The notes under the pieces are model-generated. The model was not told the DNA's origin. It saw only the letters and a program-made list of their open reading frames with translations, and did not search any database. From Escherichia coli (lineage in GTDB: Bacteria > Pseudomonadota > Gammaproteobacteria > Enterobacterales > Enterobacteriaceae): a stretch of 64,000 nucleotides of DNA. Of the stretch, positions 1 to 12,864 are shown in pieces. Made by a program: the position numbers and the translations under genes. How positions within the stretch are numbered: the first letter of the stretch is position 1; each line of letters opens with the position of its first letter. The stretch lies in NCBI RefSeq assembly GCF_050320075.1, contig NZ_CP190021.1; one strand, given 5' to 3'.

Positions 1-2
1 TA

Positions 3-1952
3 ACGAAGTGTGAACCAGAAACCACCCGCAAAGCAAGCCGTAAATCTGTAAAAACGCAGGAAACTGTCCTGTCTGCCCTGCTGGCGCAGACGGAGGAAGT
101 GAGCGTGCCGCTGGCCTCGCTGATTAAATCACCGCTGAATGTGCGCACGGTGCCGTATTCTGCGGAGTCCGTCAGCGAACTGGCGGAGTCCATTAAGGGC
201 GTCGGACTGCTGCAGAATCTGGTCGTGCATACCCTGCCTGGTGACCGTTACGGTGTCGCCGCAGGTGGTCGCCGACTGGCTGCACTCAACATGCTGGCAG
301 AGCGTGGCATCATTCCGGCTGACTGGCCTGTACGCGTGAAGGTTATTCCGCAGGAGCTGGCGACGGCTGCATCAATGACTGAAAACGGTCATCGTCGGGA
401 TATGCACCCTGCCGAACAGATTGCCGGATTCCGTGCGATGGCGCAGGAAGGCAAAACGCCTGCACAAATCGGTGATTTGCTGGGCTATTCGCCCCGCCAC
501 GTTCAGCGAATGCTGAAACTGGCAGACCTTGCGCCTGTCATCCTCGATGCGCTGGCAGAAGACCGCATCACCACAGAGCACTGTCAGGCGCTGGCGCTGG
601 AGAACGACACCGCGCGTCAGGTGCAGGTGTTTGAAGCCGCCTGCCAGTCGGGATGGGGCGGTAAACCGGAAGTACAGACCATTCGTCGTCTGGTGACCGA
701 AAGTGAAGTGGCGGTGGCAGGTAACAGTAAATTCCGCTTCGTGGGGGCTGATGCTTTCTCACCTGACGAACTGCGTACTGATTTGTTCAGCGATGACGGG
801 GACGGTTATGTCGACCGCGTGGCGCTCGATGCTGCCCTGCTGGAAAAACTCCAGGCTGTCGCTGAACACCTTCGGGAAGCCGAAGGCTGGGAATGGTGCG
901 CCGGACGCATGGAGCCTGTCGGTGAGTGCCGTGAGGATGCCGGAACATACCGCTGTCTGCCGGAGCCGGAAGCGGTGCTGACGGAGGCAGAAGAAGAACG
1001 CCTGAACGAACTGATGACGCGTTACGACGCGCTGGAAAACCAGTGTGAGGAATCCGACCTGCTGGAAGCAGAAATGAAGCTGATGCGCTGCATGGCGAAG
1101 GTCAGGGCGTGGACGCCGGAGATGCGTGCCGGAAGTGGCGTGGTGGTGTCCTGGCGTTATGGAAACGTATGTGTCCAGCGTGGTGTGCAGTTGCGCAGTG
1201 AAGATGACGCGACTGATGACGCTGACCGCACGGAACAGGTGCAGGAGAAAGCGTCAGTGGAGGAAATCAGTCTGCCGTTGCTGACGAAAATGTCTTCCGA
1301 ACGCACGCTGGCAGTCCAGGCAGCACTGATGCAGCAACCGGACAAATCTCTGGCACTGCTGGCATGGACGCTCTGCCTGAATGTGTTTGACAGCGGAGCG
1401 TACAGTAAACCAGCACAAATCAGCCTGGAATGTAAACATTATTCGCTGACCAGCGATGCGCCGTCAGGGAAGGAAGGTGCCGCATTCCTGGCGCTGATGG
1501 CAGAAAAAGCCCGTCTTGCGGCCCTGTTACCGGAGGGATGGTCACGGGACATGACGACGTTCCTGTCACTCAGTCAGGAGGTGCTGTTATCCCTGCTCAG
1601 TTTCTGCACCGCATGCAGCCTTAACGGTGTCCAGACCCGCGAGTGTGGTCGCACGTCACGCAGTCCGCTTGACTCACTGGAGAGCGCCATCGGTTTTCAC
1701 ATGCGCGACTGGTGGCAGCCGACGAAAGCAAACTTCTTCGGACACCTGAAAAAGCCGCAGATTATCGCAGCCCTGAATGATGCCGGACTGTCCGGTGCCG
1801 CACGGGACGCAGAGAAGATGAAGAAAGGCGATGCCGCTGAACATGCAGAGTTCCATATGAAAGACAACCGCTGGGTGCCTGGCTGGATGTGTTCACCACG
1901 TCCACAGACGGATGCCACTGAACGCGCCGATAACCTGGCTGATGCCGCCTGA
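3..1952 (+). CDS. ParB/sulfiredoxin-like nuclease-domain leading-region protein (5' end off window)
   Basis: Frame 3 is open from the window edge, so the track start at 99 is only an internal GTG. ParB-box-like motifs LLQNLVVH and GGRRLAAL plus HTH-like YSPRHVQRMLKL. Sits just upstream of psiB as in F/IncI leading regions. Confidence 0.8.
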   Translation, partial: TKCEPETTRKASRKSVKTQETVLSALLAQTEEVSVPLASLIKSPLNVRTVPYSAESVSELAESIKGVGLLQNLVVHTLPGDRYGVAAGGRRLAALNMLAERGIIPADWPVRVKVIPQELATAASMTENGHRRDMHPAEQIAGFRAMAQEGKTPAQIGDLLGYSPRHVQRMLKLADLAPVILDALAEDRITTEHCQALALENDTARQVQVFEAACQSGWGGKPEVQTIRRLVTESEVAVAGNSKFRFVGADAFSPDELRTDLFSDDGDGYVDRVALDAALLEKLQAVAEHLREAEGWEWCAGRMEPVGECREDAGTYRCLPEPEAVLTEAEEERLNELMTRYDALENQCEESDLLEAEMKLMRCMAKVRAWTPEMRAGSGVVVSWRYGNVCVQRGVQLRSEDDATDDADRTEQVQEKASVEEISLPLLTKMSSERTLAVQAALMQQPDKSLALLAWTLCLNVFDSGAYSKPAQISLECKHYSLTSDAPSGKEGAAFLALMAEKARLAALLPEGWSRDMTTFLSLSQEVLLSLLSFCTACSLNGVQTRECGRTSRSPLDSLESAIGFHMRDWWQPTKANFFGHLKKPQIIAALNDAGLSGAARDAEKMKKGDAAEHAEFHMKDNRWVPGWMCSPRPQTDATERADNLADAA

Positions 1953-2003
1953 TGAACAACCACACCGCCCCGCCGGAGACGGGGCGGCAGAGGGAGAAAT
2001 ACG

Positions 2004-2441
2004 ATGATGAATACCGAACTGACACTGAATGCCCTGCAGTCCATGAATGCCCAGGAATATGAAGAAATCCGTGCTGCGGGAAGCGATATGCGCCGTAATC
2101 TCACTCACGAGGTGATGCGTAAAGTGGACGCACCGGCTAACTGGATGATGAACGGAGAGTATGGCAGCGAGTTCGGGGGCTTTTTCCCCGTCCAGGTTCG
2201 TTTCACGCCAGCCCACGAACGTTTCCACCTGGCATTATGTTCGCCGGGAGACGTCTCTCAGCTCTGGATGCTGGTTCTGGTGAATGGTGGTGGACAGCCT
2301 TTCGCCGTCGTTCAGGTGCAACATATCTTCACGCCTGCCGCGATCAGTCACACGCTGGCGCTTGCCGCGACACTGGATGCGCAGGGATACAGTGTTAACG
2401 ACATCATCCATATCCTGATGGCAGAAGGAGGTCAGGCATGA
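2004..2441 (+). CDS. psiB: PsiB, plasmid SOS-inhibition protein (RecA inhibitor)
   Basis: 145-aa ORF almost colinear with F PsiB as I recall it ([22 protein letters not shown] ... [37 protein letters not shown] ... [17 protein letters not shown]). GGAG RBS upstream. Confidence 0.93.
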
Positions 2442-3157
2442 GCGCACGTTCACGGGCACTGATCCCCCTCAGCGCAGAACAACAGGCCGCCATGCAGGCG
2501 GTGGCTGTCACAGAACAACGTCGTCGTCAGGGACGCACACTTTCAGCATGGCCTTATGCCACCGCTTTCTTTCGCTGCCTGAATGGCAGTCGCCGGATTT
2601 CGCTGACCGATCTCCGCTTTTTTGCCCCTGCGCTGACGAAGGAGGAATTTCATGGCAACCGTCTCCTGTGGCTGGCTGCCGTGGATAAACTGATTGAAAG
2701 TTTTGGGGAAGTCTGTGTTCTTCCCCTGCCATCCGATGCGGGGCACCGTCTGTTCCCGTCCGTGCCTTTTCGTGAAGGTGAGCGTCGTCGTCAGAAAACC
2801 ACGCTGACAGAGCAGAAATACAGCCGCCAGCGGGAACGTGAGGCAGAACGACGGGAACTGGAATACCAGACATGTTTTGCTCAGGCGCAGATTGACCTTG
2901 CGTTTCATACTCCCGCCACGGTCGGAAGCTGGTTGTCCCGCTGGTCTGGTGTTGTTGAGGAGCATGATCTGGAAACGATTTTCTGGGGGTGGTGCGGGCG
3001 TTTTCCATCACTGTCATCATTTGACCGGTTTTTCTGGCAGGAGGAACCACTCTGGCGGCTGATTTTTGAAGCCGGTGAGGCCGGTCGTGGTGCACCGGTA
3101 CAGGTACGTGCACTTGAGCAGTGGATGATCCCGAACAAGCTGGAGAACGTAATATGA
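2438..3157 (+). CDS. psiA: PsiA
   Basis: 239-aa ORF. Its start overlaps the psiB stop (ATGA) and it is in the canonical position after psiB. The length matches PsiA. Confidence 0.85.
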
Positions 3158-3750
3158 TGAAATCAGACGAAAAATACCAGGTTCCCGCGTGGATGCGACC
3201 TCTGTTGCCGTTGCTCTGCAACACCGGGGGGAACGATCCGGAAGAACTGCTGAATGATACAGAAACCACTGCCAGTGCGAATGTTGTCCGTTATGTACTG
3301 ATAGTTGCTGTGCGGTCGCAGGTTGATCTGCTGCAGCTTCTGTACAGGAAAGGGCTGTTGCGCACAGAGATACCAGGTGGCTTTTCACCGGAAGAAGCGC
3401 AGGCACTCCTGGATAATCTGGTGCGCAGCCATATCAGCAAGGCGCTGTCGGGCGAGCGAATGGCAGCCCGTGACAGAAATGCCGATCTGGCCTGGATTGG
3501 ACAGCAACTGGTCGATGACGCCTGGTTTGTCCGTGCCACACTGGAAGCGCATGGGATGAGCGTCGGAAATGAGAGTCCCCCTGCTCCGCCGGAGACAATG
3601 CCGGACATACAGACACGGGAACTGGTGATGTTGATCAAGCGACTGGCATCATCGCTGAAAGCGGTGAAACCGGACAGTTGTGTGGTGCGTGAAGCGCAGG
3701 ACTGGCTGCGCGACAGAAAACTTGTGGATATCACAGATATTCTCCGGTGA
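3154..3750 (+). CDS. conserved hypothetical leading-region protein (198 aa)
   Basis: ATG at 3154 overlaps the psiA stop (ATGA). GGAG lies 8 nt upstream. Clean ORF with no recognisable motif. Confidence 0.6.
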   Translation: MMKSDEKYQVPAWMRPLLPLLCNTGGNDPEELLNDTETTASANVVRYVLIVAVRSQVDLLQLLYRKGLLRTEIPGGFSPEEAQALLDNLVRSHISKALSGERMAARDRNADLAWIGQQLVDDAWFVRATLEAHGMSVGNESPPAPPETMPDIQTRELVMLIKRLASSLKAVKPDSCVVREAQDWLRDRKLVDITDILR

Positions 3751-3927
3751 ACCAGGCATGTATATTTTACGCAGGGACACGCCGATCATGATCGTTTCAT
3801 ATCAGGGGTGGTCTGGAGGTCATGCGGCGTGTCCTCTGCACTCGCCGGAATAAGGAAGTCGCCGGCGGCTCCGCTTTTACCCGGCCATGCGGGGCATGGC
3901 CTTGTGGGGTTTCAGCTCTGTGGCCTC

Positions 3928-4190
3928 AGCGTCGTGTGCGGGCTGTGCCGTGCCTCCATCTTAGCCGGGCTGGCAGGGATGCAAGGGTACGCTTCGCCGC
4001 TGCGGTCACCCGGTCCCTCCTTCCCGTCTGCCGTGATTTTCCGGTCGTTCGTCCGCTCAGGTTTCGCGGCCTCACCCTGCAACTCCCGTCAGCCGTGTGC
4101 GTCAGGCTGCGGCTTCCCTTGCGCCCCTGCATCCCCGCCTTATCGCCCGGCTTTTATGGAGGCACGGCACCGCCCGGTGTCGCAGAACAT
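3928..4190 (+). promoter_or_regulatory. Frpo/ssi-type long imperfect hairpin (candidate single-strand DNA promoter) upstream of ardA
   Basis: GTGCCGTGCCTCCAT (3945-3959) is the exact reverse complement of ATGGAGGCACGGCAC (4156-4170), and the flanking arms pair imperfectly. It ends about 20 nt before the ardA RBS. The GC-rich 'ORFs' here have no coding character. Confidence 0.65.
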
Positions 4191-4211
4191 GTGACTATGG
4201 AGGATTCGGGA

Positions 4212-4712
4212 ATGTCTGTTGTTGCACCTGCTGTATACGTTGGAACCTGGCACAAATACAACTGTGGAAGCATCGCCGGACGCTGGTTTGACCTGACCAC
4301 GTTTGATGATGAGCGCGACTTTTTCGCCGCCTGCCGTGCTCTTCACCAGGATGAAGCCGATCCTGAACTGATGTTTCAGGATTATGAGGGATTCCCGGGG
4401 AATATGGCCTCTGAATGCCATATCAACTGGGCCTGGGTTGAAGGCTTCCGCCTGGCACGGGATGAAGGCTGCGAAGAGGCTTATCGTCTCTGGGTGGAGG
4501 ATACCGGTGAGACGGATTTTGACACCTTCCGCGATGCCTGGTGGGGCGAGGCTGACAGTGAGGAGGCTTTTGCGGTTGAGTTCGCCAGTGATACCGGCCT
4601 GCTGGCTGACGTGCCGGAGACGGTGGCGCTCTATTTTGACTATGAGGCGTATGCGCGGGATTTATTCCTGGACTCCTTCACCTTTATTGACGGTCATGTG
4701 TTCCGTCGGTGA
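4212..4712 (+). CDS. ardA: ArdA anti-restriction protein (type I R-M inhibitor, DNA mimic)
   Basis: 166 aa starting [34 protein letters not shown], which matches ColIb-P9 ArdA as I recall it. Very acidic C-terminal half. GGAGGA RBS. Confidence 0.93.
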
Positions 4713-5080
4713 TTTACTCCCCCGCTCCGGCGGGGGTATGGCCTGCCAGGCCGCCGGAAAACCCTGGCAGGCTTACGCCTGCCTGAAATGCAGGAGGGCC
4801 GCGCCTGCGGCGCTGCCCTTCCTGCCCGTCATGGTGTGAGGCATTTTTCTGTTATGTCGTTTCTGTTGTTCTGATTTCCGGAGGCGGGGACACCTTCGGC
4901 TCCCGGCTGCCTGGCGGCATCCGGTCGTCAGGCCCGACTCCGACAGGCAGCTGCTGGCGCACCCGCCAGTCTCCGCCGAACCCGCTGGCGCGGTTTCGGG
5001 CTGCCGCTACGGTCCGATGTCTGAAAAACCAGGCTTGCAGCGACCGTTCCGGTCGCGCCGCCCCTGTCGCGCCGGAAACG

Positions 5081-5420
5081 GCGCTCCCTGCACACCTGAC
5101 GGTGTGTAAGGCCACTGCGCCTGATGGCGCAGTCAACCCTTCCGCCGCCACCCCTGCGGCCTGTTTCCCGCTGTGGACTTTCCGGGGGCTGGAGTAACCA
5201 CATCCCGTTTCAGCAGTCCAGGGGAAGATATACCGTCCACAAAATTTTTAGCCATAAACCCGGCAAAAAATTTTGCGTCCGCCCCCGGACAGCTGCCCCG
5301 TGACGTGGTGACGGACGCCCCATCGGAAAGGTCCACTGCGGGGAGAAACCCCGAAGAAGTGGACGGCAGAAGGGGCTTTCGCCCCTCCGGGGAGCAACCG
5401 GTCGGCCCGGCGACCTGATT
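5081..5420 (+). repeat. Frpo/ssi-like element, copy A (about 320 bp, homologous to 7959-8300)
   Basis: Blocks shared with copy B: GCGCTCCCTGCACACCT.ACGGTGTGTAAGGCCACTGCGCCTGATGGCGCAG ... GGACTTTCCGGGGG ... CCACATCCCGTTTCAG ... CCCCGGACA.CTGCCCCGTGACGTGGTGA ... CGGAAAGGTCCACTGCGGGGA. Internal long-range complementarity (GGACTTTCCG / CGGAAAGGTCC; CAAAATTTTT / AAAAATTTTG at the apex). Ends at a strong RBS. Confidence 0.7.
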
Positions 5421-5440
5421 CAGCAGAAGGAGACGTTTTC

Positions 5441-5875
5441 ATGACAGTCAGCAGCACGATTTCCGTTTTTTGCCGCGACGGGGTGTTCCGTACCGTTTAC
5501 TGCCACCTGCACGGGGAGCCGACCTGGAACGGTCGCATCCTGCATACCCACTATGCCACCGGTCAGCAGGCCGAAGCCCTGGTTGAACACGGTGATATCC
5601 GTTGCCTCGGTCCCCGTTGCGACAAACCCGCCGGGCATACGCTTCAGAACCCGGTGGACGGTGTGACGGCTTATTACGGACGTGACAGTGGTTTCCGGAT
5701 GGACAGTGAGGCGCGTGAGTACCGTTCTTTCAGGGAGGCTATTGCCACTGAAAGCACTGAAGAGGTGCGCTTCCATTATGTGTTCATCGACGGCTACTGG
5801 AAGGTGATGTACCGCACGCCGGAAGGCTGGAAGATGAAAGCGCTCGCGCTGGCACTGCGTCGCTGTCCGAAATGA
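5441..5875 (+). CDS. hypothetical leading-region protein (144 aa)
   Basis: AAGGAG RBS 8 nt upstream. Lies immediately downstream of Frpo-like copy A. No motif recognised. Confidence 0.65.
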   Translation: MTVSSTISVFCRDGVFRTVYCHLHGEPTWNGRILHTHYATGQQAEALVEHGDIRCLGPRCDKPAGHTLQNPVDGVTAYYGRDSGFRMDSEAREYRSFREAIATESTEEVRFHYVFIDGYWKVMYRTPEGWKMKALALALRRCPK

Positions 5876-5968
5876 AAAAAAGGCAGGGCGATAAACCCTG
5901 CCTCTCTCCGCCGGCGCTTCCCCGCCAGGAAGTCCGGCATCTCAATCACTATCTATGGAGATTATGCC

Positions 5969-6235
5969 ATGAGACCATCAATTATCTTCGCAACCGCCGA
6001 GTATGTAAAGCGTCTGCGTGAAGAGTGCCTGCGGGAGAATAAACCCCTGCACCGCCATACCCGCTTCAGACGTCAGGAGCTGGCACAGGATGAGATTAAC
6101 CCGGACGTCCTGGCGATGAGCGGCCATATCGCCAGACGCTGCAGTGAGCAGAAGCGGGTGCGTATCCCCGCTATGAAAGTCAGCGAATGGGGCCACCTGC
6201 TCCGCGCGCTTGAAATTGAGCGGGTCTGCCACTGA
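5969..6235 (+). CDS. hypothetical protein (88 aa)
   Basis: GGAG RBS and a basic protein. No family recognised. Confidence 0.45.
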   Translation: MRPSIIFATAEYVKRLREECLRENKPLHRHTRFRRQELAQDEINPDVLAMSGHIARRCSEQKRVRIPAMKVSEWGHLLRALEIERVCH

Positions 6236-6299
6236 TTAACCCTTGCCGTCTGCCTGTGCAGGCGGCAGGATACGTTCAGACATCTCACCAGGAGGAACC

Positions 6300-7238
6300 G
6301 TGAGTCAGAAGAAAACCACCACGACGCCCACGCCGCATGATGCCGCGTTCCGGTCGTTCCTGGCGAATCCCGACGTCGCCAGAGATTTTCTGGAACTGCA
6401 TCTTCCGGCGGAGTACCGGCAGTTGTGCGACCTGTCCACGCTGAAGCTGGAACCCGCCACCTTTGTTGAGCCGGACCTGCATCAGTACGCCAGCGATATC
6501 CTCTGGAGTGTGAAAACCACCGGGGGTGAAGATGGCTATGTTTATACGCTCATCGAGCACCAGAGCACCGAAAATCTGTACATGCCTTTCCGCATGTTAC
6601 GTTACAGTGTGGCGGCGATGCAGAGACATCTGGAGCAGCACAAAACGTTGCCACTGGTGATTCCTGTACTGTTCTATCATGGTGAGCGCAGCCCGTACCC
6701 GTACAGCATGAACTGGCTGGACTGTTTTGAGAATCCGGCACTTGCGGCTAAAATATACACAAAGCCGTTTCCGCTGGTTGATATCACTGTCGTTGATGAC
6801 AATGAAATCATGAACCATCGCCGGATGGCCGCACTGACGCTGCTGATGAAGCATATCCGCCATCGTGACATGATGGAGCTGCTGGACAAACTCCCGCAGG
6901 TCATGGTGGAAATTTCAGACGAGCAGGTGCGTGTTCTGATTCATTACATCGTTAACGCAGGGGACTCTGTATCACCGGAATTTATGCGGGCGCTGGCTGA
7001 GCGTCTGCCGCAGCATGAGGATAAACTGATGACTATCGCAGAACGTCTTGAGCAAAAAGGTCGCCAGGAGGGCAGGATGGAAGGACGCATGGAAGGACGC
7101 ATGGAAGGACGCATGGAAGGAGCGCTTGAAAAAGCCCTGGCTATTGCGTGCCAGCTTCAGAAAATGGGGATGACGCCGGAGCAGATTAAGCAGGCTACCG
7201 GACTTTCCGATGACGAACTGAAGAAAATCACTCACTGA
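6300..7238 (+). CDS. Rpn family recombination-promoting nuclease (YhgA-like, PD-(D/E)XK); full-length 'RpnL'
   Basis: GTG at 6300 follows GGAGGA. N-terminal signature PHDAAFRSFL...DFL..HLP ... SDILWSV ... Y.L.EHQS ... MPFRMLRY ... PLVIPVLFYHG is typical of RpnA-E/YhgA-like proteins. Confidence 0.85.
   Translation: MSQKKTTTTPTPHDAAFRSFLANPDVARDFLELHLPAEYRQLCDLSTLKLEPATFVEPDLHQYASDILWSVKTTGGEDGYVYTLIEHQSTENLYMPFRMLRYSVAAMQRHLEQHKTLPLVIPVLFYHGERSPYPYSMNWLDCFENPALAAKIYTKPFPLVDITVVDDNEIMNHRRMAALTLLMKHIRHRDMMELLDKLPQVMVEISDEQVRVLIHYIVNAGDSVSPEFMRALAERLPQHEDKLMTIAERLEQKGRQEGRMEGRMEGRMEGRMEGALEKALAIACQLQKMGMTPEQIKQATGLSDDELKKITH
7029..7238 (+). CDS. predicted intragenic small protein (RpnS-type antitoxin, 69 aa) in frame within rpn
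   Basis: In-frame ATG at 7029 with GAGGA 8 nt upstream. It starts exactly where the free-standing paralog (7300-7458) starts (MTIAERL.QKG). It encompasses the EGRM repeat. Confidence 0.45.
   Translation: MTIAERLEQKGRQEGRMEGRMEGRMEGRMEGALEKALAIACQLQKMGMTPEQIKQATGLSDDELKKITH
7068..7124 (+). repeat. 12-nt tandem repeat (GAAGGACGCATG, about 4.7 units) encoding (EGRM)n
   Basis: Read directly: gagggcaggatg gaaggacgcatg gaaggacgcatg gaaggacgcatg gaaggagcg. In frame inside rpn. Confidence 0.95.
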
Positions 7239-7250
7239 GTAAACATCACA

Positions 7251-7275
7251 GCCCGGCAAAATGCCGGGCTTTTTT
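7251..7275 (+). terminator. intrinsic terminator after rpn
   Basis: GCCCGGC-aaaat-GCCGGGC followed by TTTTTT. Confidence 0.8.
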
Positions 7276-7299
7276 GTCAGCAGGAGCAGAGCAAATAGC

Positions 7300-7458
7300 A
7301 TGACGATTGCAGAACGTCTTATTCAAAAAGGCGCACTTGAAGTGGCGCGGGAAATAGCCTGCCGGCTGCGGGATATGGGCTGGACGCCGGAACGGATTCA
7401 GGAGGCAACCGGACTTTCCGGTGAAGAACTGAAAAAGCTGTTTCCTGATGAGCAGTAG
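7300..7458 (+). CDS. stand-alone RpnS-like small protein (52 aa), paralog of the Rpn C-terminal domain without the EGRM repeat
   Basis: MTIAERLIQKGALEVAREIACRLRDMGWTPERIQEATGLSGEELKKL aligns with Rpn residues MTIAERLEQKG-(EGRM)n-ALEKALAIACQLQKMGMTPEQIKQATGLSDDELKKI. GGAG lies 13 nt upstream, which is suboptimal. Confidence 0.55.
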   Translation: MTIAERLIQKGALEVAREIACRLRDMGWTPERIQEATGLSGEELKKLFPDEQ

Positions 7459-7488
7459 CCTGGCATTCAGCCAGGCTGTGAATCACGC

Positions 7489-7740
7489 TCACACATCCTC
7501 TGCCGTTTCCCCCAGTTCATTTTCCAGTCGCCTGATGATATCTGCCTTACGCATCCCCTGCATGTGAGGCAGCAGGTCACGGACTGAAAGTGCCTGGGTG
7601 GTCCTCCAGACGGTGACGTCCACCTGTTCCGCATTTTCCCAGGCGTGCCATGTTCTCTGCGTCACGCCAAATTCTCTGGCCGCTTTTTCGCGTGACCAGA
7701 GCATGCTTTTTCGCCAGATTCGCAGTTCCCAGCCGGTCAT
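7489..7740 (-). CDS. small XRE/Cro-like HTH regulator (83 aa), the only minus-strand gene between psiB and the Frpo-B copy
   Basis: HTH-like segment REKAAREFGVTQRTWHAWE. Twin palindromes lie directly upstream. Confidence 0.65.
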   Translation of the reverse strand: MTGWELRIWRKSMLWSREKAAREFGVTQRTWHAWENAEQVDVTVWRTTQALSVRDLLPHMQGMRKADIIRRLENELGETAEDV

Positions 7741-7754
7741 AAAACACCTTTGAA

Positions 7755-7842
7755 AAAGTGAAAAAACTTCACTTTATTTTATCATCACAATTGCCAAATC
7801 AGCGCGATAAATAAGTGTAAAAAAGTGAAGAAATTTCACTTT
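7755..7842. promoter_or_regulatory. two 21-bp palindromic operator-like sites AAAGTGAA-N5-TTCACTTT
   Basis: 7755-7775 (aaagtgaa aaaac ttcacttt) and 7822-7842 (aaagtgaa gaaat ttcacttt). Centres are 67 bp apart, in the AT-rich gap between the HTH gene and Frpo-like copy B. Confidence 0.7.
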
Positions 7843-7958
7843 TTTTGCTTGTAAATGTCGTGCGGTTTTCTCTGTTTTCACCTGTGCGGGAGTGGTGTGC
7901 CAGTGACCACCACATGCCATTGTTGTGCCGTCGTTTTTCTTCAGTCGCGCCGTATGCG

Positions 7959-8300
7959 GCGCTCCCTGCACACCTTACGGTGTGTAAGGCCACTGCGCCT
8001 GATGGCGCAGCTGTCTCTGCCTGTCTGCCGCCGCACTGCGGCCTGTTCTCCGCAGACGGACTTTCCGGGGGTACATACATGACCACATCCCGTTTCAGTC
8101 GTCCAGGGGGGAGATGTACCAGCCACAAAACTTTTTGCCGCAGGCGTCAAAAACTTTTGCGTCTGCCCCCGGACAACTGCCCCGTGACGTGGTGAGCGTC
8201 CCCCGTCGGAAAGGTCCACTGCGGGGAAATCCCCGAAGACCCGGACGGCAGAAGGAGCTTCGCTCCTCCGGGAAATGACCTGGCTGTCCCGGCAGTCGTG
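7959..8300 (+). repeat. Frpo/ssi-like element, copy B
   Basis: Homologous to 5081-5420 (see copy A). Ends at the AGGAG RBS of the next gene. Confidence 0.7.
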
Positions 8301-8319
8301 ACGATGAGGAGACAATGTG

Positions 8320-9168
8320 ATGAATCAGACTTTACCCACTGCTGACCTGAATACTGCCGGCACGACAGATGTTATTCCGTCTGTGGCTATCGACCGCATC
8401 ATCGCGCAGCGTAACGAAGGTATTGCACTGTTCATGCAGGCGATGGAATGCCTGGCGACAGCGCGCAAGATTCTGCTCGATGCGTCAGGTGATATTTTTC
8501 TTTACGGGTTTGAAGACTGCGTGACTGATTCCGTTCGTCGCATAGATAAACCGGAAGAAGCGAAAAGGAATATCACCCGTCTTGCCGACCGGAAAATCTG
8601 GGACCGCCTGATGACAGATACGGGCATGTACACCTTCATGAGTTCATGCCAGCGTGATGAGTGGAACAGCCAGCTGATGAGCGACACCTGTCCTGAAATC
8701 ACCCTGGACAATGTACTGGCAACATTCCGCCATCTGAATGCCTGCAAGATGCAGACATTTGAACAGGGACTGATTGATGTCTACCGGAAATTGTCATGGG
8801 ATTACAGAACCAATAATCCCTGCCGTCTGGGTAAGAAAATCATTATTGAAAACCTGCTGTACCGCTGGAGTAACGGGCGTGTGACGCTGGACTGCAGCGG
8901 ACGGGAGGCACTGGATGACCTGGTACGTCCGTTTTATCTGCTGGAGGGGCGCAACGTTCCTGACTTCAGGAACAGTATCGGGGCGCAGTATGGTGAATTT
9001 CTCGGGAACGGCGACAATGTCGGTAAGCTGTTAGAAGGGGAATATTTTACGGTGCGTGGCTACCAGAAAGGGACCGTACACATTGTCTTTAAGCGTTCTG
9101 ACCTTGTTGAAAAACTGAATGATATTATTGCACGGCATTATCCAGGTGCATTGCCGCCACGAGTCTGA
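8320..9168 (+). CDS. conserved hypothetical leading-region protein (282 aa; possibly DUF4942-like, from memory only)
   Basis: AGGAG at 8306-8310. A GTG at 8317 or ATG at 8320 could be the start. Immediately downstream of Frpo-like copy B and followed by a terminator. Confidence 0.65.
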   Translation: MNQTLPTADLNTAGTTDVIPSVAIDRIIAQRNEGIALFMQAMECLATARKILLDASGDIFLYGFEDCVTDSVRRIDKPEEAKRNITRLADRKIWDRLMTDTGMYTFMSSCQRDEWNSQLMSDTCPEITLDNVLATFRHLNACKMQTFEQGLIDVYRKLSWDYRTNNPCRLGKKIIIENLLYRWSNGRVTLDCSGREALDDLVRPFYLLEGRNVPDFRNSIGAQYGEFLGNGDNVGKLLEGEYFTVRGYQKGTVHIVFKRSDLVEKLNDIIARHYPGALPPRV

Positions 9169-9179
9169 TTAAACAGAAA

Positions 9180-9210
9180 AGCCCTGGTATTTATGCCGGG
9201 GCTTTTTTTT
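9180..9210 (+). terminator. intrinsic terminator
   Basis: AGCCCTGG-tatttatg-CCGGGGCT (one mismatch) followed by T8. Confidence 0.75.
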
Positions 9211-9253
9211 CTGTAATCATCATAATCTCAGAACACGATGTGACATTGTCACA

Positions 9254-9595
9254 TCAATTGTTGTTCATATCGATGCCATCTTTCCTGCCTGAATCTGTCT
9301 TTTTAGGTGCTGTTTTAGAGGAAGAACGGCGGGATGGTTTTTTCGATTCTGCTTCCCGAATAATGTCACGAAGTGCCTTCTCTCCTACTTCATACCCTGC
9401 ATTTTTGAGCGTGTCACGAACATCTGCCAGTGTATAACCCTTTGTCCTTACCAGGACAATAATGTCATCACGAATGGCATCAAGAAAATCACGCAATGTT
9501 TTCCGTTGAGCGGTGAGATCTGGCAATTCCGATAAAGCAGCTTTTGCCAGCTGGATGTCATCATCTGAGTAAAATTTTTTAGAAGCCATTGGCAC
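9254..9595 (-). CDS. hypothetical protein with Lys/Ser-rich basic tail (113 aa), adjacent to oriT
   Basis: Clean ORF with GGAGAG upstream of the GTG start. The C-terminus KKPSRRSSSKTAPKKTDSGRK suggests nucleic-acid binding. Function unknown. Confidence 0.55.
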   Translation of the reverse strand: MPMASKKFYSDDDIQLAKAALSELPDLTAQRKTLRDFLDAIRDDIIVLVRTKGYTLADVRDTLKNAGYEVGEKALRDIIREAESKKPSRRSSSKTAPKKTDSGRKDGIDMNNN

Positions 9596-9738
9596 TTTCT
9601 CTCCGTTTCATGTTGAAGTCTGATTTTATCATCAAAAACTGACTCCTGGCAGGGCTGCGCCCTGCCTCTGCCGTCTGCATAAGACTATGATGCACAAAAA
9701 TAACAGGCTATAATGGCCTGAAAAACGGGACAGGATGT

Positions 9739-9800
9739 GCAATTGTATAACCGCGCACGCGCGATTATACAATTGCCTCCTGGTCAGGGCTTCGCCCCGA
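9739..9800. other. oriT: oriT core (17-bp inverted repeat plus adjacent nick region)
   Basis: GCAATTGTATAACCGCG (9739-9755) versus CGCGATTATACAATTGC (9760-9776) is a 17-bp inverted repeat with one mismatch, followed by CTCCTGGTCAGGGC directly upstream of nikA. This matches the published description of R64 oriT as I recall it. The exact nick position is not determinable here. Confidence 0.75.
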
Positions 9801-9821
9801 CACCCCAGTAAGGAGCTGACC

Positions 9822-10154
9822 GTGAGTGATAAACGTCAAAGAAGTGGTAGTGAAAGACGGCAAAAGACGATCCTGAGAGCGGTCCGGTTCTCACCGGATG
9901 AGGATGAAACTATCTGTAAGAATGCTGAAGATTCCGGACTTACTGTATCTGCTTACATCCGAAATGCAGCACTGAATAAGCGAATTAACTCCCGTACAGA
10001 TGATGCTTTTCTGAAGGAGTTAATGAGACTGGGAAGGATGCAGAAGCATCTGTTTGTTCAGGGAAAAAGAACCGGTGACAAGGAATACGCAGAAGTGCTT
10101 GTTGCCATAACCGAACTTACAAATACATTGCGTAAACAGTTAATGGAAGGTTGA
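9822..10154 (+). CDS. nikA: NikA relaxosome accessory protein (RHH, 110 aa)
   Basis: GTG start after TAAGGAG. 110 aa equals the R64 NikA length. Position is between oriT and nikB. Confidence 0.9.
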   Translation: MSDKRQRSGSERRQKTILRAVRFSPDEDETICKNAEDSGLTVSAYIRNAALNKRINSRTDDAFLKELMRLGRMQKHLFVQGKRTGDKEYAEVLVAITELTNTLRKQLMEG

Positions 10155-10164
10155 GGATTCTCCG

Positions 10165-12864
10165 GTGAATGCAGTCATTCCGAAAAAGAGAAGGGACGGC
10201 AAGTCTTCGTTCGAAGACCTGGTATCCTACGTCTCTGTCCGGGATGACATGACCGATGAGGAACTGGATTTATCTTCTTCTTCGCAGGCTGAACAACCGC
10301 ACCGAAGCCGTTTCAGTCGCCTTGTTGATTATGCGACACGTCTTCGAAATGAGTCATTCGTGGCGCTGGTTGATGTCATGAAGGACGGCTGCGAATGGGT
10401 CAACTTTTATGGTGTCACCTGCTTTCATAACTGTACTTCTCTTGAAACTGCCGCTGCAGATATGGAGTACATTGCCCGGCAGGCACACTATGCAAAAGAT
10501 GACACTGACCCTGTTTTTCACTACATCCTTTCCTGGCAGTCACATGAAAGCCCGCGTCCGGAACAGATTTATGACAGTGTACGTCATACGCTGAAATCAC
10601 TCGGCCTTGCCGACCATCAGTATGTCTCTGCCGTGCATACTGATACAGATAATCTGCACGTCCATGTGGCTGTTAACCGGGTACACCCTGAAACGGGTTA
10701 TCTGAACCGGTTATCATGGAGTCAGGAAAAACTCAGTCGTGCCTGCCGTGAGCTTGAACTGAAGCATGGTTTTGCTCCGGATAACGGTTGCTGGGTCCAT
10801 GCGCCGGGAAATCGTATCGTTCGCAAAACTGCCGTTGAACGTGATCGCCAGAACGCCTGGACACGCGGAAAAAAACAAACTTTTCGTGAGTATGTTGCGC
10901 AGACAGCGGTCGCTGGTTTACGCAGTGAACCTGTACATGACTGGTTATCCCTGCATCGTCGTCTTGCGGAAGATGGTCTGTACCTGTCTCAGATGGACGG
11001 AAAATTTCTGGTGATGGATGGCTGGGATCGCAACAGGGAAGGTGTACAGCTTGACTCGTTTGGTCCCTCCTGGTGTGCAGAAAAACTCATGAAAAAAATG
11101 GGTGACTACACGCCAGTGCCAAAAGACATTTTCAGCCAGGTGGAAGCACCAGGACGCTATAATCCGGACTTCATTGCAGCTGATGTTCGCCCGGAAAAAA
11201 TCGCTGAAACAGAAAGTCTGCAGCAGTATGCCTGTCGTCATCTTGGAGAACGTCTGCCGGAAATGGCACGGGAAGGACGGCTGGAAAACTGCCTGGCTAT
11301 TCACCGCACACTGGCTGAAGCGGGATTATGGATGCGTGTTCAGCATGGTCACCTGGTTATCTGTGACGGTTATGATCATAACCAGACTCCCGTTCGTGCT
11401 GACAGCGTATGGTCACTGCTGACGCTCGACAATGTGAATCAACTCGATGGTGGCTGGCAGCCTGTACCAACAGATATTTTCCGCCAGGTTACGCCAACAG
11501 AACGCTTCCGTGGTCGTCGTATGGAGAGCTGTCCTGCGACCGATAAAGAATGGCACCGTATGCGTACAGGTACGGGGCCGCAGGGGGCTATCAAACGCGA
11601 ACTGTTTTCTGACAAAGAAAGTCTGTGGGGATACAGCATCAGCCATTGTAGCCCTCAGATTGAAGAAATGATCACACAGGGTGAGTTTACCTGGCAGCGT
11701 TGTCATGAGTTGTTTGCACAACAGGGACTGATGCTACAGAAACAACATCACGGGCTTGTTGTCGTTGATGCTTTTAATCATGAGCAAACGCCGGTGAAAG
11801 CCAGCAGCATTCATCCTGATCTGACACTGGGGCGTGCGGAGCCACAGGCCGGACCTTTTGTGAGTGCTCCAGCAGATTTGTTTGACAGGGTGCAACCTGA
11901 AAATCGCTATAACCCGGAGCTGGCTGTCAGTGACAGGTACGGGGTCAGCAGTAAACGTGACCCAATGCTGCGCCGGCAGCGACGTGAAGCCAGGGCTGAG
12001 GCCCGTGCTGACCTGCGTGCCCGCTATCTGGCATGGCGTGAACAATGGCGTAAACCGGATCTGCGTTATGGGGAACGTTGTCGGGAAATTCATCAGGCAT
12101 GCCGTCTGCGGAAGTCACACATTCGTGCGCAGTACGATGATCCGGCATTACGTAAGCTGCATTATCACATTGCAGAAGTTCAGCGAATGCAGGCATTGAT
12201 CAGGCTGAAAGAAGACATCAGGGATGAGCGACAGAAACTTATTGCTGACGGGAAATGGTATCCACCCTCTTACCGTCAGTGGGTCGAAATTCAGGCTGCT
12301 CAGGGAGACAGGGCTGCTGTATCGCAGTTGAGAGGCTGGGATTATCGCGATCGCCGTAAAGACAAGTCACGCACAACGACGACAGACCGCTGTGTCGTGC
12401 TTTGTGAACCGGGCGGAACGCCGGTATACGGTAATACCGGTGATCTCGAGGCCCGTCTGCAGAAGAACGGGAGTGTTCGTTTCCGTGACCGTCGGACGGG
12501 AGAGTTTGTCTGTACGGATTATGGTGACAGAGTTGTTTTCCGTAATCACCATGACCGCAATGCGCTGGCAGATAAACTGGATTTGATTGCACCGGTATTA
12601 TTCGGGCGTGATCCACGCATGGGGTTTGAACCAGAAGGAAACGACAAACAATTTAACCAGGTCTTTGCTGAAATGGTTGCCTGGCATAATGTGACAGGCC
12701 GTACCGGTCACGAAGACTACAGGATTACGCGACCGGACGTGGATCATCACCGTGAAGGAAGTGAACGCTACTACCGCGATTATATCGCGGCGAACAGCAA
12801 CGATGACGCATCACTGCCTCCGCCGGAGCAGGATAAACGCTGGGAACCGCCTTCTCCAGGTTAA
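10165..12864 (+). CDS. nikB: NikB relaxase (MOBP-type, 899 aa)
   Basis: 899 aa equals R64 NikB. The relaxase histidine motif region is HTDTDNLHVHVAVNRV. Confidence 0.92.
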   Translation: MNAVIPKKRRDGKSSFEDLVSYVSVRDDMTDEELDLSSSSQAEQPHRSRFSRLVDYATRLRNESFVALVDVMKDGCEWVNFYGVTCFHNCTSLETAAADMEYIARQAHYAKDDTDPVFHYILSWQSHESPRPEQIYDSVRHTLKSLGLADHQYVSAVHTDTDNLHVHVAVNRVHPETGYLNRLSWSQEKLSRACRELELKHGFAPDNGCWVHAPGNRIVRKTAVERDRQNAWTRGKKQTFREYVAQTAVAGLRSEPVHDWLSLHRRLAEDGLYLSQMDGKFLVMDGWDRNREGVQLDSFGPSWCAEKLMKKMGDYTPVPKDIFSQVEAPGRYNPDFIAADVRPEKIAETESLQQYACRHLGERLPEMAREGRLENCLAIHRTLAEAGLWMRVQHGHLVICDGYDHNQTPVRADSVWSLLTLDNVNQLDGGWQPVPTDIFRQVTPTERFRGRRMESCPATDKEWHRMRTGTGPQGAIKRELFSDKESLWGYSISHCSPQIEEMITQGEFTWQRCHELFAQQGLMLQKQHHGLVVVDAFNHEQTPVKASSIHPDLTLGRAEPQAGPFVSAPADLFDRVQPENRYNPELAVSDRYGVSSKRDPMLRRQRREARAEARADLRARYLAWREQWRKPDLRYGERCREIHQACRLRKSHIRAQYDDPALRKLHYHIAEVQRMQALIRLKEDIRDERQKLIADGKWYPPSYRQWVEIQAAQGDRAAVSQLRGWDYRDRRKDKSRTTTTDRCVVLCEPGGTPVYGNTGDLEARLQKNGSVRFRDRRTGEFVCTDYGDRVVFRNHHDRNALADKLDLIAPVLFGRDPRMGFEPEGNDKQFNQVFAEMVAWHNVTGRTGHEDYRITRPDVDHHREGSERYYRDYIAANSNDDASLPPPEQDKRWEPPSPG

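Follow-up and report, generated by a model that had tools for sequence, protein, structure and literature searches.

Zhong et al. (2023, PNAS; PMC10400941) reported that rpn genes encode both a toxic nuclease, RpnL, and a small antitoxin, RpnS, which is produced from an internal start. In that study, RpnS dimerised through a long helix with a variable number of 4-amino-acid (aa) repeats, and RpnL was neutralised only by an RpnS of matching repeat number, as shown for RpnC. The toxicity or nuclease activity of RpnL and its neutralisation by the cognate RpnS were shown for RpnA, RpnB, and RpnP2, and internal transcription start sites were present in all five rpn genes of E. coli K-12. The plasmid-encoded RpnP2 of strain ECOR13 reduced the plaquing of T-even phages, and deletion of rpnP2 in ECOR13 led to less protection. 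Here, we describe an rpn gene at positions 6300 to 7238 of a 64,000-nucleotide (nt) stretch of Escherichia coli DNA (contig NZ_CP190021.1; referred to as the window). It is very probably an rpnP2 allele, that is, a gene-within-a-gene RpnL/RpnS toxin-antitoxin and antiphage module of the leading region of IncI-type plasmids. A preliminary description of the locus had pointed to published work on a toxic RpnL, a separately translated RpnS, and a variable number of 4-aa repeats in the dimer helix; this agrees with the account of Zhong et al., in which the repeats set specificity.

The gene, rpnL (named ygdB in plasmid R64), lies on the plus strand, as do the genes and gene signals given with window coordinates below unless stated otherwise. 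It begins with GTG and ends with TGA (939 nt, 312 aa). The Pfam model PF04754 (Transposase_31/YhgA-like) matched aa 11 to 207 (6330-6920) with an E-value of 1.6e-78 and a score of 263 against a cut-off of 21 bits, and TIGR01784, the NCBIfam model of the Rpn family, passed its cut-off of 52 with 180 bits (E 6.7e-53). The RpnA model of NCBIfam matched with an E-value of 4.3e-95, under its equivalog cut-off. The putative catalytic residues are D14 (6339-6341), D66 (6495-6497), E86 (6555-6557), and Q88 (6561-6563), and the window protein has the wild-type residue at each of these positions, which are the ones altered in AO730, the gBlock of the RpnP2 active-site mutant. By these matches, the 312-aa protein is a member of the Rpn family of PD-(D/E)XK nucleases, and its N-terminal part is the typical Rpn nuclease that the preliminary description had taken it to be.

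The window was compared with the oligonucleotide table in the supplement of the Zhong et al. preprint. Window positions 6260-6299 match at every base the 40-nt arm of primer AO739, with which rpnP2 was removed from ECOR13, and the end of this arm contains the Shine-Dalgarno sequence of RpnL (AGGAGG, 6290-6295). Over the first 399 nt, the gBlock AO730 and the window have 10 differences, of which five belong to the engineered changes D14A/D66A/E86A/Q88K. A second gBlock, the start-site mutant AO714, is nearly identical to the window over approximately 6671-6860, after which the identity is roughly 60-75%. On this comparison, the window gene is a natural variant of rpnP2 at the same plasmid locus.

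The change at approximately 6860 marks a recombination breakpoint, where the identity to alleles with an RpnP2-type tail falls from 97-100% to 55-75%. Relative to three such alleles (L015-L017; tail ending in ELKNITH, with G-I-Q-Q repeats), residues 1-190 of the window protein are 97.4% identical, and the rest is 47% identical. A breakpoint in another plasmid, L008, lies just after the internal start codon (~7050). As judged from these alignments, the locus is a mosaic of one nuclease domain and exchangeable C-terminal modules, and the module in the window differs from the one tested by Zhong et al. No sequence text that would equate the window allele with RpnP1 of that study was found in its supplements.

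The preliminary description had placed an in-frame ATG with its own GAGGA motif at 7029, opening a tail of 69 codons, and the sequence confirms this layout. The internal ATG (7029-7031) is codon 244 of rpnL, and the predicted antitoxin gene rpnS extends from it to the common stop (7029-7238, 69 aa). The Shine-Dalgarno motif GAGGA (7017-7021) is located within conserved His-Glu-Asp codons, with a 7-nt spacer to the ATG; the sequence that includes the two reads GAGGATAAACTGATG. The internal methionine is retained in 108 of the 109 full-length homologues, the most distant of which have 58% identity, and in the alignment of these homologues, the His-Glu/Gly-Asp codons before the methionine spell a ribosome-binding site. 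In the homologue P0049, leucine replaces the methionine of the internal start. Both GAGGA and ATG are kept in all 19 sampled plasmids, in three codon contexts, and the homologous GAGGAC...ATG in AO714 is the site that Zhong et al. altered to abolish RpnP2S. Measured from the internal methionine, 77 of 78 distinct homologue tails (from P0001-P0120) have a length of 49+4n residues, with a range of 49 to 85, and the sole exception is a frameshifted sequence. A candidate sigma-70-like promoter for a short rpnS transcript is present at 6727-6754 (TTGAGA, 16-nt spacer, TAAAAT; 10/12 matches), in a stretch that is identical in AO714. By analogy with the alleles studied in the laboratory, RpnS is probably translated separately from 7029 and acts as the antitoxin.

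The tail is predicted to form a long, repeat-bearing helix followed by two short ones. A profile built from the homologue tails matched 7TH0 (RpnA-S) in the PDB with an E-value of 1e-11. The AlphaFold model of RpnS contains helices at residues 3-45 (which include the repeats), 50-57, and 61-68, with a predicted local distance difference test score (pLDDT) of 71, and a Foldseek search of the PDB with this model returned 7TH0 as the top match, with a probability of 1.00. The link to 7TH0 is clear only by profile. A search of the PDB with the single tail found 7TH0 at an E-value of 0.04, behind several designer proteins of repetitive sequence, none of which passes in its individual stretches, and phmmer with the full protein against the PDB matched a designed repeat protein alone. 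A Pfam scan of two tails on their own gave just sub-threshold helix-turn-helix-like matches. A precomputed Pfam domain, PF27070, is assigned to the tails of full-length homologues as well as to some of the small proteins encoded by stand-alone genes.

The repeats begin at RpnS residue 12, inside the range of 8-20 residues after the internal methionine that characterises RpnL/RpnS systems. Tandem Repeats Finder (TRF) and a unit-by-unit comparison identified an array of five 4-aa units at 7062-7121, one RQEG followed by four RMEG. In codon register, the array consists of CGCCAGGAGGGC (RQEG), AGGATGGAAGGA (RMEG), and three exact copies of CGCATGGAAGGA (RMEG; 7086-7121). TRF reported a 12-nt repeat that is 100% identical over 7077-7121 (3.8 copies, score 90), which corresponds to three units plus 9 nt. 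The preliminary description had given a perfect 12-nt repeat at 7068-7124 that encodes EGRM four times; the fourfold repeat of the protein stands, while the exact DNA repeat is shorter than stated and confined to 7077-7121, because the first GRME unit uses synonymous glycine and arginine codons. The repeat matches itself over 33 consecutive bases, which, in 64 kb, cannot be due to chance.

Repeat counts were read directly at nineteen plasmid loci (L001-L019). Alleles of the GRME type carried no GRME unit (L002, L007), one (L006), two (L005, L012), three (L004, L011, L019), four (the window allele, as well as L001 and L010), or five (L003); in L013, the RQEG unit was absent too. The exact unit CGCATGGAAGGA is present 0-4 times in IncI-type plasmids, giving 0-5 GRME units, and repeat number is far from invariant across these plasmids, the comparison proposed by the preliminary description. 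The GRME-type alleles differ by gain or loss of the exact unit only, with the two degenerate 5' units constant, and this is the pattern that slippage or unequal exchange would be expected to leave. Matching plasmids were also sampled at even spacing and classified by span length: one record had five GRME units, six had four, eight had three, 13 had two, 13 had one, and 11 had none; one representative each of the classes with 0, 1, 2, 3, and 5 units was sequence-checked. The four copies in the window are near the upper end of the 0-5 range.

The module is proposed to work as follows, with separate translation, toxicity, neutralisation, repeat matching, and the effect on phages carried over by analogy from the RpnP2, RpnA, RpnB, and RpnC alleles. 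RpnL (312 aa) would act as a PD-(D/E)XK DNA endonuclease and, on its own, would cause DNA damage and toxicity. The ATG at 7029 would also be used by ribosomes, probably on a shorter transcript from the internal promoter, to yield the 69-aa RpnS. RpnS would be identical to the tail of RpnL, and the long first helices of the two proteins would pair in an inactive 2:2 complex. How long this helix is would depend on the count of 12-nt (4-aa) units, and this count would change via slippage or unequal exchange of CGCATGGAAGGA. With toxin and antitoxin encoded by the same DNA, the two would change together, and an RpnS of another length would no longer fit. Certain phages would free RpnL during infection, so that DNA would be cut and the phage yield lowered.

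An intrinsic terminator (7250-7275; 9-bp GC-rich stem, then a T run) is located 12 nt past the rpn stop codon and is followed by rpnSs, a stand-alone RpnS paralogue of 52 aa that is repeat-free in the window (7300-7458; ATG at 7300, AGGAG at 7282-7286). Genes of this category are already known: Zhong et al. described RpnSs genes after both rpnC and rpnE and noted their occurrence on plasmids (PMC10400941). The start annotated in GenBank, ATG 7261, falls within the terminator loop and is probably wrong, judging from the conservation of rpnSs, which starts at a methionine that aligns with the internal start of rpn. A promoter-like site at 7274-7301 was considered as an rpnSs promoter and rejected, since its -10 element shares bases with the ATG at 7300. 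The rpnSs DNA is 75% identical to 7117-7225, its protein is 67% identical to RpnS, and TIGR01784 matches it weakly at tail positions. The gene is intact in 19 of 19 plasmids and has a 12-nt repeat of its own, encoding F(D/K)(E/Q/K)G, with 0-6 units and none in the window. The non-repeat core has a ratio of non-synonymous to synonymous substitution (dN/dS) of ~0.29 by a crude pairwise estimate, a value at which the gene is taken to be under purifying selection. No full-length Rpn was present among the top 120 protein clusters found with rpnSs.

The repeat counts of RpnSs and of the neighbouring RpnL were equal in only 2 of the 19 plasmids. Across the 12 GRME-type alleles, the repeat numbers of RpnSs and of the tail had a Spearman correlation of -0.66 (p 0.02), in a sample that is small and neither independent nor random. 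Under the published matching rule, RpnSs would be unable to neutralise the neighbouring RpnL. The repeat-free RpnSs of the window equals in helix length the repeat-free RpnL alleles found elsewhere (P0002, L013). In L008 (NZ_CP080167, IncK2/Z), two stand-alone RpnS-like genes (1642-2092) follow an rpn gene with a GIQQ-type tail, and the first of them is a GRME-type tail, the same type as the intragenic tails of other plasmids. From this arrangement, tails appear to be gained and lost by swapping, in the manner of cassettes.

Positions 6200-7500 of the window are 100% identical to plasmid pFORC44_1, where the gene is annotated as Rpn family. Similar sequence was found in ~2,000 plasmids, which come from Escherichia, Salmonella, Shigella, and Klebsiella; almost all are conjugative and of MOBP/MPF_I (IncI) type. 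The gene order is ssb, yfhA (ParB-like), psiB, psiA, ardA, ygcA, ygdA, ygdB (rpn), a small open reading frame (ORF), ygeA, ygfB, yggA, nikA, and nikB. It bears out the location in a leading region that the preliminary description had assigned; rpn points in the same direction as the early genes already known and is separated by ~2.5 kb from the oriT/nikA side. The small ORFs ygcA (5441-5875) and ygdA (5969-6235), both annotated in pFORC44_1 and pHU493, had no Pfam match. A terminator-like site was not found on the plus strand between 5400 and 7250, and ygcA and ygdA are probably in one operon with rpn.

A long imperfect hairpin on the minus strand (5040-5400) lies directly upstream of ygcA-ygdA-rpn and is a candidate single-strand promoter of the ssi/Frpo type, which would be active on the transferred strand. 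Folded as single-stranded DNA, it has an energy of -114.4 kcal/mol (z = -8.5 vs shuffles). A second, related element (~7920-8290; z -7.8 vs shuffles) is located upstream of ygfB, and the two share segments of 67 nt and 60 nt at 94% and 87% identity. Both are likely to be ssi/Frpo-type single-strand promoters of the leading region. In the IncI1 plasmid pESBL, each induced leading-region operon is preceded by a hairpin that acts as a single-strand promoter, with induction of up to ~500-fold (PMC12672017). Expression of a ygcA-ygdA-rpn operon on entry is plausible, because no plus-strand terminator lies between the hairpin and 7250-7275. The scan of window positions 1-12000 with Rfam at the gathering threshold found no RNA family. 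Literature searches returned no paper that connects Rpn with either conjugation or the leading region, and Zhong et al. mention neither of the two (PMC10400941).

Several observations weigh against identifying the window gene as a working rpnP2-type module. Its C-terminal third is only ~47% identical to alleles with an RpnP2-type tail. The published phage protection by RpnP2 was modest, at ~10-fold for T2 and T4 with the strongest effect on BASEL phage #40, and varied with growth conditions (PMC10400941), and a PADLOC 2.0 scan of Rpn, RpnSs, and their neighbours gave no relevant model match. The Foldseek E-value for 7TH0 was weak (0.045), which is attributed to the shortness of RpnS, and confidence in the RpnS model was moderate, with a pLDDT of 58-64 across the repeats. 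The candidate internal promoter fits the internal transcripts reported by Zhong et al. and is a consensus match only. A leading region is an unusual location for a phage defence gene, which leaves room for a role in plasmid establishment or competition.

Such a role was weighed alongside two other readings of the gene. The older Transposase_31/ISNCY annotation would make the gene an insertion-sequence transposase; the names of Pfam and some NCBIfam models point that way, and one record labels the gene 'ygdB: transposase_31'. However, the NCBIfam model NF007418 ('ISNCY family transposase') scored 335 bits against a cut-off of 583 and fails, the position of rpn is fixed between ygdA and ygeA at a single locus across ~2,000 plasmids, and it varies through exchange of its 3' part between alleles and not by moving. 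Zhong et al. saw neither terminal inverted repeats nor target duplications flanking rpn genes, and an autonomous transposase with an Rpn fold is not known, according to the same authors (PMC10400941). This annotation is scarcely credible. It is also very unlikely that the internal ATG is merely a methionine codon, the repeats a neutral slippage polymorphism, and the tail the dimerisation domain of a single protein. While an in-frame ATG after a purine-rich stretch may arise by chance in a gene of 312 codons, and surviving changes of a 12-nt repeat are always in frame, the internal methionine is kept in all but one of the 109 homologues, and GAGGA is kept despite differing codon contexts. Small products were detected from all five rpn genes of E. 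coli K-12, and RpnP2S was also detected with RpnP2LS under the native promoter, where start-site mutants of rpnP2 were recovered only with extra inactivating mutations; one repeat added to RpnC abolished cross-neutralisation (PMC10400941). Furthermore, stand-alone genes for the RpnS-type domain lie next door, under purifying selection.

The remaining alternative accepts the module and differs in its purpose. The module may serve the plasmid mainly at entry, in establishment or competition and not in resident phage defence, and the incoming single strand would be the template for its transcription along with that of ardA, psiB, and ssb; within this alternative, the orphan RpnSs might, speculatively, be a decoy antitoxin against Rpn nucleases of matching helix length in the recipient or in rival IncI plasmids. 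The gene order from ssb, psiB, psiA, and ardA through ygcA, ygdA, and rpn to nikA/nikB, the shared orientation with early genes, and the two upstream hairpins of single-strand-promoter type, with the strong induction known from IncI1 operons (PMC12672017), are in its favour. So are the over-representation of toxin-antitoxin genes and orphan antitoxins in leading regions (PMC11541004), the conservation of RpnSs with a repeat number that rarely equals that of the neighbouring RpnL, and the helix length that the window RpnSs shares with repeat-free RpnL alleles. Against it, resident RpnP2 cut phage plaquing, and its deletion in ECOR13 weakened protection (PMC10400941), and RpnSs, whose gene follows a strong terminator and has an unfavourable Shine-Dalgarno spacing (13 nt), may be produced at a low level. 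A purpose at entry in place of resident defence is considered unlikely. It is still less likely that the rpnP-type module and the orphan RpnSs both belong to a zygotic (entry-phase) programme driven by the hairpin, with RpnSs as a portable anti-Rpn factor or tail-switching cassette in conflicts of IncI plasmids with one another or with the host.

Other features differ among the plasmids or flank the module. In L006 and L019 (IncI1/B/O), a different 390-nt ORF, once annotated 'CbiX', replaces or follows ygdA and overlaps the rpn start, and the Shine-Dalgarno context of rpn changes from CACCAGGAGGAACC to GATGGAGGAACC; the upstream flank thus varies across IncI subgroups. Two further genes are conserved beside the rpn module, namely ygeA (7489-7740, minus strand), which encodes a small helix-turn-helix protein directly after rpnSs, and ygfB (8317-9168), which encodes a DUF4942 protein.

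The system, its layout, its repeat variation, and the plasmid locus are already published. The identification of the window gene as rpnP2 gives the ygdB of IncI plasmids, which is widely annotated as a putative transposase, its place as the published RpnLS toxin-antitoxin and antiphage module, and the module is carried by ~2,000 resistance plasmids that have been sequenced from E. coli, Salmonella, Shigella, and Klebsiella. These plasmids form a natural series, with 0-5 copies of one 12-nt unit in a near-identical background and with swapped tails, for the study of the repeat-matching rule. The leading-region position behind a single-strand-promoter-like hairpin is a modestly new angle beyond Zhong et al. 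(PMC10400941), whose work is also extended by the conserved orphan RpnSs with rarely matching repeats. Both angles are speculative and bear on the establishment of, and competition between, conjugative plasmids.

Among the described systems, RpnP2 is the closest. The two share the locus, with an identical 40 nt 5' of the GTG and five natural differences in the first 399 nt; the four residues targeted for inactivation and the internal promoter-like sequence are the same, and they have homologous internal GAGGA-ATG starts. In both, the 4-aa repeats lie near the beginning of the small protein, and the stop codon is followed by a terminator. They differ in the C-terminal third, which in the window is a different module (~47% identity, with the break near 6860), and in the repeat unit, which is G-R-M-E in the window (four units plus RQEG) and G-I-Q-Q in RpnP2. 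The window tail has 69 aa, compared with 61 aa in the sampled alleles with an RpnP2-type tail.

The chromosomal RpnA-E proteins of E. coli K-12, including RpnA-S (7TH0), have the same gene-within-a-gene layout and nuclease family. The tail of the window gene is homologous to RpnA-S by profile and is predicted to share its three helices, of which the first is long. Unlike rpnA, the window gene is located on a plasmid, in a conjugative leading region, and it is a paralogue rather than an orthologue. The crystallised RpnA-S of K-12 has 49 aa, which is the length of a repeat-free tail in the plasmid family, whereas the first helix of the window RpnS is longer because of its five 4-aa units.

The stand-alone RpnSs genes downstream of rpnC and rpnE (ypaA) resemble the window rpnSs in encoding a separate RpnS-type domain right after an rpn gene, in being closest to the tails of the same locus, and in having 4-aa repeat variation of their own. 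The plasmid genes differ from them in three respects: the lineage found in the window (ending ...LFPDEQ) was never joined to a nuclease in the top 120 protein clusters, the repeat number of the plasmid RpnSs shows little coupling to that of the RpnL beside it, and some plasmids have two such genes. A more distant parallel, drawn by Zhong et al. (PMC10400941), is the TAEL repeat of HsdS in EcoR124I/EcoR124II, where the count of a 4-aa (12-nt) helix repeat likewise alters specificity. There, the repeat spaces the DNA recognition sequence, whereas the Rpn repeat sets the fit between toxin and antitoxin.

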